From Lactobacillus sp. (GTDB taxonomy: Bacteria > Bacillota > Bacilli > Lactobacillales > Lactobacillaceae): a stretch of DNA of 64,000 bases. A model generated the notes under the pieces. It was not told the origin of the DNA and did not search any database. It saw only the letters and a program-made list of their open reading frames with translations. A program made the position numbers and the translations under genes. Numbering within the stretch: the stretch's first letter is position 1; every line of letters begins with the position of its first letter. Of this stretch, positions 9,520 to 63,997 are shown one piece after another. Where the stretch lies: NCBI RefSeq assembly GCF_051893255.1, contig NZ_JBJFHB010000065.1:223-64222 (forward strand). The letters run 5' to 3'.

Positions 9520-11805
9520 TTAATGATAACACAGCTGCCGCCCCTGCAAAAAGCTGGTAAAGTAGCTCAGCCCAAAACCGTAATGCCAGGTGATCATCCC
9601 TGAGTCTTGAGTCGACAGGTAGGGAATCCCTAATTCCTTCAATTTTTCTAGGGTAGCGGGCTTAGGGTGGTGGTAGCGGTTGTTGCGGCCTGCCGAAATA
9701 AAGACCAGCTGCGGCTTAATCGTCTCTAAAAATTTCAAAGACGAAGAAGTATCGCTGCCGTGGTGGCCCAGTTTAAAGTAATCGATCCGCAGATCAGGGT
9801 GTTCACTGATAATTTTTTCTTCGCCGGCCTGGTCCAAATCCCCGGTAAAGCCCCAGGTCTTGCCAGCCAGGTTGCAAATTAGCGACAAGGAATCCTTGTT
9901 TTCGCCTAAGCCAGGTTCTTCTGGGTGGAGGACCTGAAAAGGAATTTTTTCTTTAACGGTCATCCCGGCCTGCAGTTCCACTAGCTGGGTATGATCCACC
10001 CGCCCGGCCAGCCTTTGGGCAAAGCTGGGGTTCTGAATGAGGCCAACCCCCATGTAAAGGCGCTTGACCGGCATTTTTTCTAGCAGAGTGCTGAGGTCGC
10101 CCACATGGTCAGCGTCCTGGTGGCTGACAAAAACGCCGTCCAAGTGGTCAATCCCCTGAGCCTTGAGCATGGGCAGGGTAATTTGGTTCAGCTGGGCGCG
10201 CGTTTTCTTATGACCAAAAGACAGCTTGCCGCCGGTGTCAATCAGGTAGCACTTCCTAAAAATCGGAGTGGTCAGCAAAATACTGTCGCCTTGCCCCACG
10301 TCAATGAAGCTGACCTGCCCCATCAGGGGAAAGTGGATGCTGACAAAAAAGAGACTGTAGGCCAAGGCTAAGAATTTTAAGAGCTTGATCCTTTTCCTTT
10401 TTTCTTGAGCAAAGAGCAAGGCTAAGACAGTTAGACTTAGCAGCAAGAGCAGCTGCCAGGGCTTGATCTGGCCAAAAATCACCTGCCCCAGCCGCTGCCC
10501 AGCGATCCAGTCAATCCCCCATTCGGCTGCTTCTAAGATTTTTTCTAAAAATTGCCAGAGAGCTAAATTGGGAACAAACACTGCCAAAAAGGTCGCCGGC
10601 ATGACCACAAAATTGAAATACGGCACAACCAGTAAATTGTAAAAAATCGTCGCCACGTTCACCTGGTAAAAGAAATAGAGCAAAAACGGCGTTAACAGCA
10701 AATTCAGCCAGGCTGATTGACTTAGCCCCTGTATTTCCTGGGTTAAGACCAGCCCGGCTGCCAAAACATAGGTCAGCATCCCCCCAGTTTGGAGGAGCAG
10801 GCGCGGGTTAAAGAACAGCTGCAGGCTAAAGACCAGACCCAAGAGGTCGGCAGACGTGATATTCAGCCCTCTATAGGCTAAAAAGCGCCCCAGGCAATAC
10901 ATCAGGCTGGCCCGGATAAAGCCCGGCTGAAAGCCGCTTAAAAAGACTTCTAAAAGCAAAAAGACACTAGTTACGGCAAAAACTTCGTCTCGCGGGATCA
11001 ACAGAGTTGACCCGACAGCCGCAAAAACTAAGACGTAAAGGCCCACATGCATCCCCGAGATGCTCAGGATGTGGATGACGCCAAGATCGCGGTAATTGTC
11101 CAGATTGCCTTGATTTTCGCTATCGGGGTTTTCCGCCAAGATCAACTCGCTGGCAAAAAAAGCAAGAAGCCGCGGCAGCTTGGCCAAATATTGCTTGATT
11201 TGCCAGCGGATGCGGTGCAGACTAATCTGCCAGTTACTCCCAGCCACCAGCACCTGATAATTGGTCACTTTGACCTGGCCGGCCAAGTGCTGACTATAGG
11301 CGTAGCGGCGGTAGTCAAATTGGCCCGGGTTAGTCGCTGGCTCTGCCTCTTTGGCTTCGCCCGCAAGTTGAGTCAGGTAAACTGCCTGGCCCTGGGCAAG
11401 GGCAGCTTCTAGATCATTTTTAGCAGGACCATACAAGCTGACCTTTTGCCCCTGACAGTGGCCTTTGCCGCTTAACCAATTATCGCTGATTTTGGCTTCA
11501 TCGGGATAAAGGAGAAGTGCCGTATTTTCCCCTAACTGAAAATTTTTTGCCTGCCGGTCGCAAAGAATGGCGCCGGCCATCAGCAAAATTGCTAAAAAAG
11601 CCAAAGCGAAGGCTGCTGGGTATTTGCGCTTGATCAGCCAGGCTAGATAAAGGAGAGTCATAAGGCTCACGATTTTTAAAGTGGCTGCCTGAGCATAGAC
11701 CAAACCAGATAAACTGACTAAGAGCAAGCCCAGCAAAAAGTAAAAACCGCTCTCTAGACTAGATCGTAAGCTGGTCTTTAATCGCGGCGAAGGTCTTGTC
11801 GCCAA
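9520..11805 (-). CDS. comEC: DNA uptake channel ComEC
   Basis: NPGQFDY, HILSISGMHVG competence domain, MBL domain DVGQGD / SHQDADH / HHGS; uninterrupted; TTG start overlapping comEA. Confidence 0.95.
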   Translation of the reverse strand: MATRPSPRLKTSLRSSLESGFYFLLGLLLVSLSGLVYAQAATLKIVSLMTLLYLAWLIKRKYPAAFALAFLAILLMAGAILCDRQAKNFQLGENTALLLYPDEAKISDNWLSGKGHCQGQKVSLYGPAKNDLEAALAQGQAVYLTQLAGEAKEAEPATNPGQFDYRRYAYSQHLAGQVKVTNYQVLVAGSNWQISLHRIRWQIKQYLAKLPRLLAFFASELILAENPDSENQGNLDNYRDLGVIHILSISGMHVGLYVLVFAAVGSTLLIPRDEVFAVTSVFLLLEVFLSGFQPGFIRASLMYCLGRFLAYRGLNITSADLLGLVFSLQLFFNPRLLLQTGGMLTYVLAAGLVLTQEIQGLSQSAWLNLLLTPFLLYFFYQVNVATIFYNLLVVPYFNFVVMPATFLAVFVPNLALWQFLEKILEAAEWGIDWIAGQRLGQVIFGQIKPWQLLLLLSLTVLALLFAQEKRKRIKLLKFLALAYSLFFVSIHFPLMGQVSFIDVGQGDSILLTTPIFRKCYLIDTGGKLSFGHKKTRAQLNQITLPMLKAQGIDHLDGVFVSHQDADHVGDLSTLLEKMPVKRLYMGVGLIQNPSFAQRLAGRVDHTQLVELQAGMTVKEKIPFQVLHPEEPGLGENKDSLSLICNLAGKTWGFTGDLDQAGEEKIISEHPDLRIDYFKLGHHGSDTSSSLKFLETIKPQLVFISAGRNNRYHHPKPATLEKLKELGIPYLSTQDSGMITWHYGFGLSYFTSFLQGRQLCYH

Positions 11806-12511
11806 TTCCCGACACCTCTTTCAGCTCATCGATAGACTTAAAGCCCCCCTTTTCCTGCCGGTAGGCAATGATCTGCTGGGCTTTCTTTTCCCCGATACCG
11901 TTTAGCTTTTGCAATTCTGTGGCCGAAGCCGTATTGATGTTGACCTGGCCGCCACTAGCGCCGCTAGCTGAATCTCCACTTGCTGCAGAAGCATCAGCGC
12001 TAGTACTAGTGGCCATACTTGCACTGCTAGCAGTAGCAGCACTCGCTGGCACGTTCTTTTCGCCCTTATAGGGGATGTAGATCTTGTCTTGGTCGCGGAG
12101 CAGCTGACTCCGGTTAATTGCCTTTAAATCGGCCCGCTTCGTCAACCCGCCGGCACATTCAATCAGGTCTTCCAGCCGCATCCCATTTTTCAGGGTATAA
12201 ACGCCCTGGTGCTTGACGGCTCCAGAAATATCACAGACCACCTTATTTGAGGAAACTTGCATACTGGACGTCTGGGCATTAGCAGTTGATGACACTCCAC
12301 TGGCGCTGCTGCCTGACGAAGAAAAGGACGATCCAGCAGAGCCTGACTGCGAGCTAGTCAGCAGGGCTGAATTATCAACCTGTTTTTGATTTGCCTGGTA
12401 AAAGTAAAAGCCACCTGCAACCAGGACGATCCCAATCAGGTAGATTTTCTTTTCTAAAAGCCAGTCAACGACTTGACGAAATTTGCTTTCTGTATGGTTT
12501 TCTTGATTCAT
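11759..12511 (-). CDS. comEA: DNA receptor ComEA
   Basis: N-terminal TM, SLBB domain (DISGAVKHQGVY), C-terminal HhH (VNINTASATELQKLNGIGEKKA); start at ATG 12511 after GAGGTG. Confidence 0.95.
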   Translation of the reverse strand: MNQENHTESKFRQVVDWLLEKKIYLIGIVLVAGGFYFYQANQKQVDNSALLTSSQSGSAGSSFSSSGSSASGVSSTANAQTSSMQVSSNKVVCDISGAVKHQGVYTLKNGMRLEDLIECAGGLTKRADLKAINRSQLLRDQDKIYIPYKGEKNVPASAATASSASMATSTSADASAASGDSASGASGGQVNINTASATELQKLNGIGEKKAQQIIAYRQEKGGFKSIDELKEVSGIGDKTFAAIKDQLTI

Positions 12512-12523
12512 TTTTTTCACCTC

Positions 12524-12567
12524 ACTTATTAGTACACCGAAAATCGAAATTTTCACGAAAAAAGTTG
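12524..12567 (-). promoter_or_regulatory. Candidate competence-specific promoter, copy 1 (comEA-comEC)
   Basis: CAACTTT-N15-GATTTTCGGTGTA, shared at identical spacing with the radC upstream region. Confidence 0.7.
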
Positions 12568-12616
12568 TGGATAAGTCAATTTCATCCGTCTTTCAGAAAG
12601 TGTAAATGAAAAAATA

Positions 12617-12644
12617 AAAGCTCAGACACTTGGTCTGAGCTTTT
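12617..12644 (-). terminator. Terminator after ylbL, isolating comEA from the upstream operon
   Basis: AAAAGCTCAGAC-ACTT-GTCTGAGCTTTT with A/T tails. Confidence 0.8.
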
Positions 12645-12690
12645 ACTCTCGAATAATATTCTTGAATTATTTTTTATCTTAGCGATTCAC

Positions 12691-33821: not shown

Positions 33822-34020
33822 CAAAAAATCTCATCCTGAATAGGACGAGATTCTCGTGGTACCACCTAAATTGAGCCTATTGCTAGACCCCACTTATTGC
33901 CAACTTATCGGGTCAGCTGCCGGTCAGACCAATTGGCAGCTGATCGCTTTCAGGCCTTTTGTTAATCTTCCACCATCATTAACTCGCTAGATTCGCCTTC
34001 AAGCTTGACTGTCAGTCTGA
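33822..34020 (-). promoter_or_regulatory. T-box riboswitch, Ile specifier AUC
   Basis: T-box AGGTGGTACCACG (33855-33867), terminator AATCTCGTCCT...AGGATGAGATTTTTT, specifier ATC at 33942-33944. Confidence 0.92.
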
Positions 34021-34084
34021 GTTTATTAATCAAAATTATGCAATAGATAAAAAGTAATGAGAAAACTTTTATCTACATTAAAAG

Positions 34085-39361: not shown

Positions 39362-40474
39362 CTAATTCTTTTTGGCAATTTCCTGCATCACCTGGATGAC
39401 TTGGTCTGAGGCATCGGGCACGCCCAAGGCCTTAGAAGCCTTGCTCATCTTTTCGGCGTAAGTGGTATCTAAGAGCAGGTGGTCGATTGATGAAACAAAG
39501 GTATTTTCGTTTAAGTCATCTTCGGCAATCACCAAGGCCGCGCCTGCCTTTTCCAGGTCCATGGCGTTCTTCATTTGGTGGTTGTGGGTAACGTTTGGAC
39601 TAGGGATCAAGATGACCGGGACGCCCAAAGCCGTAAATTCAGCCAAGCTAGTTGCCCCAGACCGGGAAACAACGCAGGTCATTTCTGGTAGCAGGCCTGG
39701 CATGTTGGCAATGTATGGCACAACCTTGATGGAAGTGCCGTAGTCAACGTCAGCCAGCTTCTTTTCAATGGCCTTATAGTAGTAAGTCCCGGTTGCCCAG
39801 ATAACTTGATACGGCTTTTTCTTGAGTTCCATCAAGCTCTTCAGCATGACCCGGTTGATGGCCAAGGCCCCGCGTGAGCCGCCAAAGACCAAGACCGTTG
39901 GGATTTGCGGATTTAGGCCCATTTCGCCTGCTAAGTCAACCGGCTTGGCGTTCAAGCTCAAGACCTGCTGAGAGCGCGGATTGCCAGTCTTGACCAGCTT
40001 CTTTTTCTCAGGGAATTCCTTAGCTGCATCATCGAAGCTGTAGCAAATCTTGTCCACGTAGTGGCCGAGGAACTTGTTGGCCACCCCAACCACGGAGTTT
40101 GATTCGTGGATCATGGTTGGGATGTGCATCTTGCTGGCTTCATAAACGATAGCACCGCTGACATAGCCGCCCGTCCCCAAAACGACGTCTGGCTTAAAGT
40201 CAGTCAAGATTTGCCGCGCCCGCTTAGTAGCCTTCAAGAACAGACTAATCGTCTTGAAGTTCTTCATTGGGTGCTTGCGGTCAAAGCCTTGAATTTCAAT
40301 GGTTGCAAAGTTGACGCCAGCAGCTGGGACGATCTTTGATTCAAGCCCCTTTTGCGTGCCGACAAAAAGGATTTCATCGTTAGTAGAAATGCCTTCTTCT
40401 TTCAAGCGTTCGATCAAGGCCATGATTGGGTAAATGTGGCCGCCCGTGCCGCCACCGGAAAAAATAACTCTCAT
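39362..40474 (-). CDS. murG: MurG glycosyltransferase
   Basis: GGGTGGHIYP, GGYVS, HESN, GGSRGA, SRSGA. Confidence 0.98.
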   Translation of the reverse strand: MRVIFSGGGTGGHIYPIMALIERLKEEGISTNDEILFVGTQKGLESKIVPAAGVNFATIEIQGFDRKHPMKNFKTISLFLKATKRARQILTDFKPDVVLGTGGYVSGAIVYEASKMHIPTMIHESNSVVGVANKFLGHYVDKICYSFDDAAKEFPEKKKLVKTGNPRSQQVLSLNAKPVDLAGEMGLNPQIPTVLVFGGSRGALAINRVMLKSLMELKKKPYQVIWATGTYYYKAIEKKLADVDYGTSIKVVPYIANMPGLLPEMTCVVSRSGATSLAEFTALGVPVILIPSPNVTHNHQMKNAMDLEKAGAALVIAEDDLNENTFVSSIDHLLLDTTYAEKMSKASKALGVPDASDQVIQVMQEIAKKN

Positions 40475-50046: not shown

Positions 50047-50661
50047 TTAAAACAATTCTCTTTCACGCAGGCTCAAATAGTCGCCCCCACCCACAATGAA
50101 GTGGTCCAAGAAGGCGATCTTCATGATCTTGCTTGCCTCCTTGAGCCCCCTGGTCAGCTCCAGGTCATTTTTGGACGGGGTCAAATAGCCACTTGGGTGG
50201 TTATGAGCCACAATCATGCTGGCACAGCCGTAAACGACCGCCCAGCGGAAAATTTCCCTTGGGTGCACCCAGGAGCGGTCCAGGGTGCCTTGGAAAAGCA
50301 TCTTCTCTCCTAACAGATTTTGCTGCTTGTCAAAGTAAAGAACCCAGAACTGCTCTTGCTTTTGCCCTTGCAGCTTTTCAGCCAGGTAATTGCCGATCTT
50401 GGAGCTGGATGACCAGTCACAAGACCGGCGGTGGTCGGTTGCTCTCAACCGGTCCATTACCACCTCGATGGTCAATGCTAGGTCTGGCGGACAAGCGGGA
50501 CCTGATGCATAATCCAGCAAGTCCTTGAAGCTGGTGATCTTGTCTTTCCGCAGCCGCTTGTCCAGGTCCTCCCAGCTGGTCAGCTGCAACTGGCTGGCTA
50601 AAAGCTTGAGCAAGTCCAGATCATTTTCGATGTAGTAGTAGTTAAACGTTTGTTCAGTCAT
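50047..50661 (-). CDS. radC: RadC/JAB-domain protein
   Basis: QEQFWVL, VHPREIF, HNHPSG, LDHFIVG. Confidence 0.93.
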   Translation of the reverse strand: MTEQTFNYYYIENDLDLLKLLASQLQLTSWEDLDKRLRKDKITSFKDLLDYASGPACPPDLALTIEVVMDRLRATDHRRSCDWSSSSKIGNYLAEKLQGQKQEQFWVLYFDKQQNLLGEKMLFQGTLDRSWVHPREIFRWAVVYGCASMIVAHNHPSGYLTPSKNDLELTRGLKEASKIMKIAFLDHFIVGGGDYLSLRERELF

Positions 50662-50693
50662 GACAACTGCCTCCTAAAAATAAAAACGCCTCT

Positions 50694-50737
50694 ACTTGTT
50701 ATTACACCGAAAATCAGAAAATTAACGTCGAAAGTTG
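50694..50737 (-). promoter_or_regulatory. Candidate competence-specific promoter, copy 2 (radC)
   Basis: CAACTTT-N15-GATTTTCGGTGTA; 34/44 identical to the comEA copy without gaps. Confidence 0.7.
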
Positions 50738-51394
50738 GAAGAAGTTTTGGCACACTATTATTGCTCTTTGTCTATCAACCGCTCTAGGTGCCTTCAGGTC
50801 GGGAATCATCACGCAATCGATGCCGGCATTGGCCGCTGCTTCAACCCCCATGCTGGAATCTTCAAAGATCAACAGCTCCTCTTTAGCTAGGCCGCTTCTT
50901 TTTTGCGCTTCCAGGTAGAGATCAGGAAAAGGCTTAGAACGCAGCTTGTGTTCAGCCACTTCGTCGTGGGTGACGATGTAGTCAAAATAGTTGCGGCATC
51001 CCGTAACCCAGAGGTCATGGTCAACCACGCTCTTGTAGTTGTTGCTGGCTAGACCCATGTTGATCCCGAGCTCTTCAAACTTATCGAGGATTTCTTGAAC
51101 GCCGGGCTTTAAGACTAGCTTGCCTTCATCGGCCCATTGCCAAACCAGGTCATCGGTTCTCTTGACGAAGGCCTGGCGGACTTCGTCACTAGCAAAATAC
51201 TTGGCGTAAAAGTCATCCATCGTCTTGACGCTGGCCCCGACCAAGGTGAGGTAACTGTCGTCAGGGATGCCCAAATTATACTCTTTAGAAGCCTGAATGT
51301 TGGCCTTCCAGTAGAGCTCTTCTGAATTGACTAAAAGACCATCCATGTCAAAAATGACGCCCTGTTTTTCGTGTTCAATGCCTTTGATCTGCAT
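50714..51394 (-). CDS. HAD-IA family phosphatase
   Basis: IFDMDGLL motif I, ASN, KPFPDLY, IFEDS. Confidence 0.9.
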   Translation of the reverse strand: MQIKGIEHEKQGVIFDMDGLLVNSEELYWKANIQASKEYNLGIPDDSYLTLVGASVKTMDDFYAKYFASDEVRQAFVKRTDDLVWQWADEGKLVLKPGVQEILDKFEELGINMGLASNNYKSVVDHDLWVTGCRNYFDYIVTHDEVAEHKLRSKPFPDLYLEAQKRSGLAKEELLIFEDSSMGVEAAANAGIDCVMIPDLKAPRAVDRQRAIIVCQNFFQLSTLIF

Positions 51395-55384: not shown

Positions 55385-55575
55385 AAAAAAAGTCCTAGAC
55401 AAACTGTCTAGGACGATTTAATTAACCGCGGTACCACCTATTTTGAGCATGCTGCTCCACTTAAAGGCGGTTAACGGGGCATAACCGGATTGGCCTACTG
55501 GGCTTCAGCCAATCAGCTCTTCAAGCTACTAGGTGCTTCCGGTCTCTCAGCATGCTGACCTTTCTCTGTCATGAA
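55385..55575 (-). promoter_or_regulatory. T-box riboswitch, Val specifier GUA
   Basis: T-box AGGTGGTACCGCG (55427-55439), terminator GTCCTAGACA-GTT-TGTCTAGGAC-TTTTTT, specifier GTA at 55527-55529. Confidence 0.92.
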
Positions 55576-55630
55576 GCGCCACCTCTTGATCTTTGCTTTG
55601 TCAAAAAGTATAGCATATTTTTTCAGATCA

Positions 55631-63441: not shown

Positions 63442-63634
63442 GATCTGAGTTGATCGTCAGAAGCTTATTTGTAAATTAGTTGACCGATCAAACTTAAGGA
63501 CGTGGTGGCCTGTCAGTAACTACTGAATCGGAATGCTGCCTTGGCAGAATCCATATTCACTGCGCGATGGGCCGGATTTTGTGATTTTTTTACGGGATCA
63601 ACAAGCGCCATTTATGCTTTGGTCAACTCGGATT
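63442..63634 (+). ncRNA. ssrS: 6S RNA (SsrS; Lacto-usp-type)
   Basis: About 193 nt with own promoter and terminator; ends pair (GATCTGAGTTGATC / GGTCAACTCGGATT) into a long rod; position downstream of rarA; no covariance model run. Confidence 0.8.
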
Positions 63635-63646
63635 TTCTTAGATAAT

Positions 63647-63674
63647 AAAGGCGGCCCAAATGGGCCGTTTTTTT
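63647..63674 (+). terminator. Terminator after 6S RNA
   Basis: GGCGGCCCA-AA-TGGGCCGTT-TTTTT. Confidence 0.85.
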
Positions 63675-63712
63675 GTATATCCAGTATTATTAAGAAAGAG
63701 AAAGTTGGTTTA

Positions 63713-63997
63713 ATGCTTTACATTCGCATCTTCATGGGGATCTTCATCTTAATGCTCCTCCTCACCTCCTGGTACCTCTGGCACCGCAGAAACGGCGCCT
63801 TTCTTGTCTTTGACGTTGCTGGCAATCCTGGCCTCCATACCCTGATGACGGCCTGCTCAATCGCCCTTTTGGCCGTCAGCATTATCGGGATTATCCTGCT
63901 CTTTATGCCCAACAGGTACCTGAATTTAATTACACTTTTCCTTGGCTCTGGCGTCATTTTTGCCTTTGCGCTGCTGCTTTCACAAAACCAGCAGTAA
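63713..63997 (+). CDS. Small hypothetical membrane protein (about 3 TM)
   Basis: 94 aa from ATG 63713; the longer ORF call from 63533 runs through the 6S RNA and terminator and is unlikely. Confidence 0.75.
   Translation: MLYIRIFMGIFILMLLLTSWYLWHRRNGAFLVFDVAGNPGLHTLMTACSIALLAVSIIGIILLFMPNRYLNLITLFLGSGVIFAFALLLSQNQQ

Follow-up and report, generated by a model that had tools for sequence, protein, structure and literature searches.

The window, that is the whole stretch of 64,000 nucleotides analysed here, carries comEA, comEC and radC, of which the first two form a presumed operon (Table 1). The closest species-representative genome is that of Lactobacillus equicursoris DSM 19284 (91 % amino-acid identity in ComEA and 96 % in RadC), followed by the L. 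delbrueckii group. The gene 5' of comEA is a Lon/PDZ ylbL-like gene, and the terminator that the initial annotation had placed between the two is a real hairpin. Its statement that no sigma-A consensus precedes comEA holds as well, and a simple sigma-70-type scan returned no site in either the comEA or the radC region. The genes of the window include no sigma factor and no com genes beyond these three.

Read on the minus strand, the 44-mer of comEA (reverse complement of 12524-12567) is CAACTTTTTTCGTGAAAATTTCGATTTTCGGTGTACTAATAAGT and that of radC (reverse complement of 50694-50737) is CAACTTTCGACGTTAATTTTCTGATTTTCGGTGTAATAACAAGT. As first described, the two are identical at 34 of 44 positions without a gap, lie immediately 5' of their genes and share the exact 13-mer GATTTTCGGTGTA, each with CAACTTT at a distance of 15 nt on its 5' side. 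No further copy of this 13-mer is present in the window, and allowing three mismatches or fewer in the bipartite pattern yields two matches in the window as against none in 100 shuffles. When all 56 window genes were compared pairwise (1540 pairs) over the 120 nt upstream of each, comEA/radC is the top gapless 44-mer match, its score of 34 standing about 8 standard deviations over the mean of the best pair matches (mean 21.9, sd 1.5) and the second-ranked pair reaching 29. The 44-mer of radC overlaps the HAD-hydrolase ORF: its positions 1-24 belong to the 3' end of that ORF, whose TGA stop (50714-50716) is the "TGA" within CTGATTTTCGG.

In the same comparison ileS/valS (28/44) was one of the pairs ranking next, because both genes have T-box leaders (33838-34030 and 55406-55602, both on the minus strand; E 6e-12 and 1e-16). 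With 56.7 and 74.8 bits these T-boxes fall under the Rfam gathering threshold of 93, and a default Rfam scan therefore misses both. A Lacto-usp RNA (RF01710, 96.6 bits) at 63486-63574 (+) overlaps the start of the last window ORF (63533-63997, +).

Table 1. Features of the comEA-comEC and radC loci, in window coordinates
Feature	Position	Strand	Remark
comEC	9520-11805	-	Pfam Competence and Lactamase_B
comEA	11759-12511	-	Pfam SLBB and HHH_3 domains
comEA-comEC operon	9520-12511	-	presumably driven by the comEA com-box
Predicted transcription start (T 12524 / G 12523) and Shine-Dalgarno GAGGTG of comEA	12518-12524	-	prediction
comEA com-box, extended -10-like element GATTTTCGGTGTACTAA	12529-12545	-	exact 13-mer shared with radC; orthologues
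Candidate -35-like element of comEA, CGTGAAAA	12550-12557	-	GTGAAA, 14 nt, TGTA
CAACTTT upstream of comEA	12561-12567	-	probable T-rich flank 5' of the -35-like element
Intrinsic terminator of the ylbL-like gene	12610-12650	-	dG -23.2 kcal/mol, z -6.5, followed by a U-run
radC (RadC-like JAB domain)	50047-50661	-	Pfam PF04002, E 1e-41
radC com-box GATTTTCGGTGTAATAA	50699-50715	-	exact 13-mer; orthologous radC promoters
HAD-hydrolase ORF upstream of radC	50714-51394		
Candidate -35-like element of radC, CGTTAATT	50720-50727	-	GTTAAT; within the HAD-hydrolase coding sequence
CAACTTT upstream of radC	50731-50737	-	HAD-hydrolase coding sequence

Conservation and specificity of the box

At the orthologous position, about 9 nt ahead of the ribosome-binding site or GGAGG-like run, all of the approximately 20 Lactobacillus comEA loci whose 5' end was read have a run of T's and then G(G)YGTA. 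The comEA box is TTTTCGGTGTACTAA in the window and in L. equicursoris, ATTTTTGGCGTAYTAG in the L. delbrueckii group, and T6GCGTAYTTA or T6CGTACTTA in bee-gut Lactobacillus. The radC box is likewise conserved in nine Lactobacillus loci, among them those of L. delbrueckii (TTTTTGGCGTAATTAG), L. nasalidis (CTTTTGGCGTAGTTAG), L. xujianguonis (CTTTTTCACGTATTTAG) and a Lactobacillus MAG (GCTTTTGCGTAATTAA). In L. xujianguonis (locus L069, 2949-3200) the ORF after the radC com-box stays open for 74 codons and the tblastn match spans residues 7-204, which suggests a frameshift or a pseudogene.

The comGA loci were reached stepwise, from B. subtilis and S. pneumoniae ComGA sequences to cluster representatives, to the ComGA of Agrilactobacillus and then to that of L. 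nasalidis (P0319, partial), which as query returned 31 loci. The initial annotation had expected the motif before comGA and called for a check of its conservation in relatives: the box stands ahead of the comGA-GG operon in L. equicursoris (ATTTTTGGCGTAATAA / CCTTTTTTCGGTAAAAATTGCATTTTTGGCGTAATAAATAGTGGGGGG), in the L. delbrueckii group (CTTTTGGCGTACTAG / CAGAAAAAAATCGCCACTTTTGGCGTACTAGTAAGTGGAGG) and, as a T-run with GCGTA, in L. colini and several further Lactobacillus species, so that it occupies the same place before comEA, radC and comGA across Lactobacillus. The comGA and comEA promoters of L. equicursoris are identical at 34 of 44 positions, and at 17 of 20 in the upstream half. The extended pattern is thus common, in the lineage of the window, to three late operons that are not linked to one another.

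Related boxes were found beyond Lactobacillus, before comEA in Granulicatella and Secundilactobacillus and before comGA in Holzapfeliella, Loigolactobacillus, Philodulcilactobacillus and Lacticaseibacillus. Two Lactiplantibacillus comGA loci (L283 and L285) have CTTTGCGCAACTAG at the position of the box, with GCGCA instead of GCGTA, a core variant that may reflect the very divergent SigH of these species. As to the surroundings of the comG operon (L. equicursoris locus L272, 9686-15662; L. curvatus locus L297), genes for a YtxK-like N6 methyltransferase and ackA lie downstream of it and genes for a YebC/TACO1-family regulator and a VanZ-like protein precede it, in an order kept from L. curvatus to L. 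equicursoris. Searching the fetched Lactobacillaceae loci by tblastn with approximate queries for SigH, ComX, DprA, Ssb and RecA gave no match.

The box is nearly confined to the comEA, radC and comGA promoters in the DNA that was read. Scanning both strands of the 282 kb of fetched delbrueckii-group loci with TTTT[N]GG[CT]GTA returned 22 on-target sites, all of them in comEA, radC or comGA promoters and on the sense strand in every case, and a single off-target site where about two would be expected by chance. A looser filter, in which the box is followed by a ribosome-binding site and an ORF within 70 nt, selected almost exclusively comEA, radC and comGA when applied to all Lactobacillaceae loci fetched. 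In the window itself the sole other exact match to TTTTNGGYGTA, TTTTCGGCGTAAGTGG at 39450-39460 (+), lies antisense in murG (39362-40474, -); it is probably a chance occurrence, or else it could drive an antisense transcript.

Anatomy of the proposed promoter

When 18 promoters were aligned on YGTA, the informative columns were the T-run (-7 to -3), G at -1, C or T at 0 and G, T and A at +1 to +3, the last three being invariant in 18/18 and the Y being a C in 16 of them; a T at +5 is frequent. Counted from the Y, position +12 is a T in all 18, and a GGAGG-like run comes next (12512-12524 and 50682-50694 in the window). This run is retained even when it does not serve the gene as Shine-Dalgarno, namely at radC in the window and at the comGA of L. 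equicursoris and the L. delbrueckii group, the latter genes having a second, real Shine-Dalgarno further downstream of the run. Judged from the alignment, the T at +12 with its GGAGG may mark the 5' end of the transcript, in the manner of a 5'-terminal stabiliser of the Shine-Dalgarno type. As this position is 7 nt past the -10-like hexamer YGTAnT, the predicted starts fall at about 12523-12524 and 50693-50694.

Both boxes of the window have TGTA and not the dominant CGTA. The T in place of C may signify weaker promoters or a shifted specificity; as the comGA box of L. equicursoris keeps the C, there is no clean co-variation.

The region 5' of the T-run is weakly conserved among the 18 promoters. 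In the window the G of GTGAAA (comEA) and of GTTAAT (radC) lies exactly 20 nt before the T of TGTA, and GTGAAAA, GAGAAAA or CAGAAAA is found at the same offset in several com promoters of Lactobacillus and in that of L. curvatus. The corresponding position of comEA reads GGTAAA in L. equicursoris, and the first four bases of the radC GTTAAT fit the lactococcal GTKACA. Column conservation of this -35-like element is weak, and it is missing in the bee-gut lactobacilli. In the comEA loci of the latter (L007-L020) the terminator of the ylbL-like gene runs into the com-box about 30 nt before comEA, its T-tail being at the same time the T-run of the box; terminator and promoter thus share bases, leaving no room for a -35 element.

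The initial annotation had assigned the -35 role to CAACTTT, and this part of its proposal is unlikely. CAACTTT starts 31 nt upstream of YGTA (its CTTT at 28-25 nt), approximately 12 nt too distant; at radC it is coding sequence, in relatives its place is taken by a T-rich stretch or a terminator stem, and its information content is low. GTGAAA/GTTAAT, which match as "CGT.AA" and lie 14 nt before the box, would make the better -35 candidate. We also considered CAACTTT as an AAC -35 of the ECF type and rejected it because the 27 nt to the YGTA core are too long. Within the delbrueckii group a CTTT-like sequence occurs at about the same offset, at comGA of L. equicursoris the sequence is CGCCTTT, and in bee-gut lactobacilli the terminator stem occupies this region. 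The upstream half C..CTTT...CGKKAAWW is common to all three promoters of the equicursoris lineage and may therefore have a lineage-specific role.

Proposed competence-sigma promoters and alternative readings

Based on these comparisons we propose, at a probability of about 0.75, that the comEA and radC sites are promoters of a competence sigma factor of the SigH/ComX family, read mainly via an extended -10-like box. The reading is well supported since the box is conserved, is nearly confined to com promoters and resembles the lactococcal ComX box. The negative sigma-70-type scan, the strong terminator that separates comEA from its 5' neighbour and the induction of comGA by sigma-H in L. sakei, whose sister species L. 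curvatus has the box before comGA, also speak for it. The idea of a shared competence-sigma promoter that marks the competence regulon, put forward in the initial annotation, thus has strong comparative support. RNA polymerase carrying this competence-specific alternative sigma factor would read both late competence promoters, its main determinant being an asymmetric com-box of 4-6 T, G(G), YGTA and nT(A/T)A, which in the window reads TTTTCGGTGTA(C/A)TAA, together with a weak A-rich -35-like element (GTGAAA or GTTAAT) 14 nt upstream. Transcription would start 7-8 nt past the box, at the GGAGG-like sequence, and production of the sigma factor would turn on comEA-comEC, radC and the comG operon together.

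Chance likeness of two AT-rich intergenic stretches, both of which are indeed T-rich, is excluded by the shuffles (0 matches in 100), by the rank of the pair as best of 1540, by the conservation among orthologues and by the third operon. Conservation and restriction to com genes would fit equally well with the operator of a conventional transcription factor that co-regulates these genes while the housekeeping sigma transcribes them, and the upstream half common to the three equicursoris-lineage promoters could be a separate protein-binding site. Nevertheless, the box is asymmetric and has no dyad, its distance to the GGAGG/start region is fixed and -10-like in all species, no sigma-70 promoter accompanies it, and it fits the -10 half of a lactococcal box that was defined on ComX-induced genes; in addition, the Lactobacillales have no ComK (PMC3364868). 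We therefore regard an operator as unlikely.

Still less probable is that these are ordinary sigma-A promoters with a TG-extended -10 (TGTACTAAT / TGTAATAAC), alike by common descent of promoter style. The window sequences TGT-ACTAAT and TGT-AATAAC each agree with TATAAT at 4 of 6 positions after the TG, yet the TG is specific to the lineage, with CGTA standing in relatives and in comGA of L. equicursoris, and the hexamers lack A2 or T6. Moreover there is no TTGACA-like -35 (scanning both regions for TTGACA, a 16-18 nt spacer and TATAAT gave no site), and the invariant columns, that is the G, T and A of YGTA and the T-run, are unlike a sigma-A -10. An element acting at the RNA level in a transcribed 5' leader, for instance a protein- or ribosome-binding site, seems to us similarly improbable. 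It would account for the nearness of the box to the ribosome-binding site and for a GGAGG-like run kept at a fixed distance even when it is not the gene's own Shine-Dalgarno, but the element matches no Rfam family, reading of the aligned sequences disclosed no conserved pairing partner, and because the upstream terminator of bee-gut lactobacilli ends in a U-tail that doubles as the T-run of the box, read-through RNA would rarely contain the box there. Partial matches to cre and CodY boxes were noticed by eye and set aside, as they are not common to both sites.

Streptococcal and lactococcal ComX boxes and the control of L. sakei com genes by sigma-H are already known, and the competence-sigma box described here is most likely the Lactobacillus version of the lactococcal one, as judged by its sequence and placement. 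The literature searched, with subscription journals outside its scope, yielded no responsive element for the SigH of lactobacilli, and a review of 2022 gives none and presumes the ComX and SigH elements to be too distant from each other (PMC9300618). According to the same review natural transformation had yet to be demonstrated in any lactobacillus, even though the com genes of many are intact and accompanied by a SigH-like factor (PMC9300618). A defined Lactobacillus com-box would permit genome-wide prediction of the regulon and clean reporter fusions with which to find the conditions or regulators that switch competence on, and it would show which point mutations to make. Because elements of this kind are familiar from streptococci and lactococci, what is gained is incremental and of practical rather than conceptual value.

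Comparison with known competence boxes

The sigma-H of Bacillus and Listeria, likewise an alternative sigma factor, belongs to the same wider family; its consensus is RMAGGRWWW-N11-12-RRMGAAW, and in Listeria it drives comG, comE and coiA (PMC4754846). Examined by eye, the comEA and radC sites have neither AGGA at -35 nor GAAT at -10, and a sigma-H promoter of this type was rejected.

The streptococcal cin-box, or combox, is TACGAATA. Like the Lactobacillus box it is an asymmetric, -10-proximal element preceded by T's that stands before late com genes including comEA and radC, and it differs in having CGAATA where Lactobacillus has YGTAnT. The initial annotation had held that the motif does not match the known cin-box. 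Taken literally this is correct for the streptococcal sequence, whereas the lactococcal version, TTTTCGTATA with an upstream GTKACAA, is close. The combox is also given as TTNCGAATAA (PMC9300618).

In L. sakei, overproduction of sigma-H raised the expression of comGA 280-fold, comEA 261-fold, comC 608-fold and dprA 2163-fold, the induced set comprising comEA-EC, comGA-GF with the methyltransferase and ackA (ack2), comFA-FC, comC and dprA (PMC3364868). The gene set is thus the same as that considered here, except that radC is missing from the list, and no promoter motif was reported (PMC3364868). Sigma-H-like genes are present in L. acidophilus, L. gasseri, L. helveticus, L. crispatus and L. 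jensenii (PMC3364868). As the L. sakei qPCR primers for comGA (forward and reverse), dprA (forward) and comEA (forward) (PMC3364868) had no exact match in the genome and metagenome contigs, its sister species L. curvatus was read in its place. The comGA box of L. curvatus (TTATTTGCGTATCT / TTATTTGCGTAT / GGTTATTTGCGTATCT) is, in the form GGTTATTTGCGTATCT, almost identical to that of L. lactis comGA, gattatttgcgtata.

The closest known counterpart is the lactococcal ComX box, 5'-GTKACAAWNNHWNWTTTTCGTATA-3', as listed in S2 Table of PMC11244767 after David 2017 and Mulder 2017; the genes on which it was defined are those that respond to overproduced ComX with induction. It stands before comEA (gaaactttccaagagtttttcgtata) and radC (gtgacaaaggccagatttttccgtata) as well as comGA, comC, comFA, ssbB, dprA, coiA and recA (PMC11244767 S2 Table), with 20-22 nt from the G of its GTKACA to the C of CGTATA (PMC11244767). 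The two boxes have in common a run of T's with CGTA behind it, their place before comEA, radC and, in relatives of the window, comGA, and an equal distance to the GGAGG/start region; the radC locus of Lactococcus hircilactis, GTTTTTCGTATAAAAAAGTGGAGG, has the same box-to-GGAGG spacing. They may share a bipartite build as well, with a GTK-type element, in Lactobacillus a candidate one, at 20-22 nt upstream. They differ in the core, which is GG-YGTA-nTAA in Lactobacillus (with the C changed to T in the window) and (T)CGTATA in Lactococcus, and in the -35-like element, A-rich (GTGAAA) and weakly conserved in the former as against GTKACA in the latter. The presumed factor of Lactobacillus, furthermore, would belong to the SigH and not to the ComX branch.

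A wider and more tentative reading, which we hold possible and rather less probable than its opposite, is that the SigH-type factors of Lactobacillaceae read essentially the box of lactococcal ComX, so that the com cis-element would be continuous across the Lactobacillales and the equicursoris lineage would have drifted from it. The drift would consist of a change from CGTA to TGTA at two of its three promoters and of the shared upstream CTTTTTTCGKKAAAA, possibly together with its sigma factor, and the invariant T/GGAGG 8 nt past the box would be a 5'-terminal, Shine-Dalgarno-like feature of com transcripts. Such continuity runs against the presumption of too-distant ComX and SigH elements (PMC9300618), and the likeness of the boxes points to a greater similarity between ComX and SigH promoters than has been assumed.
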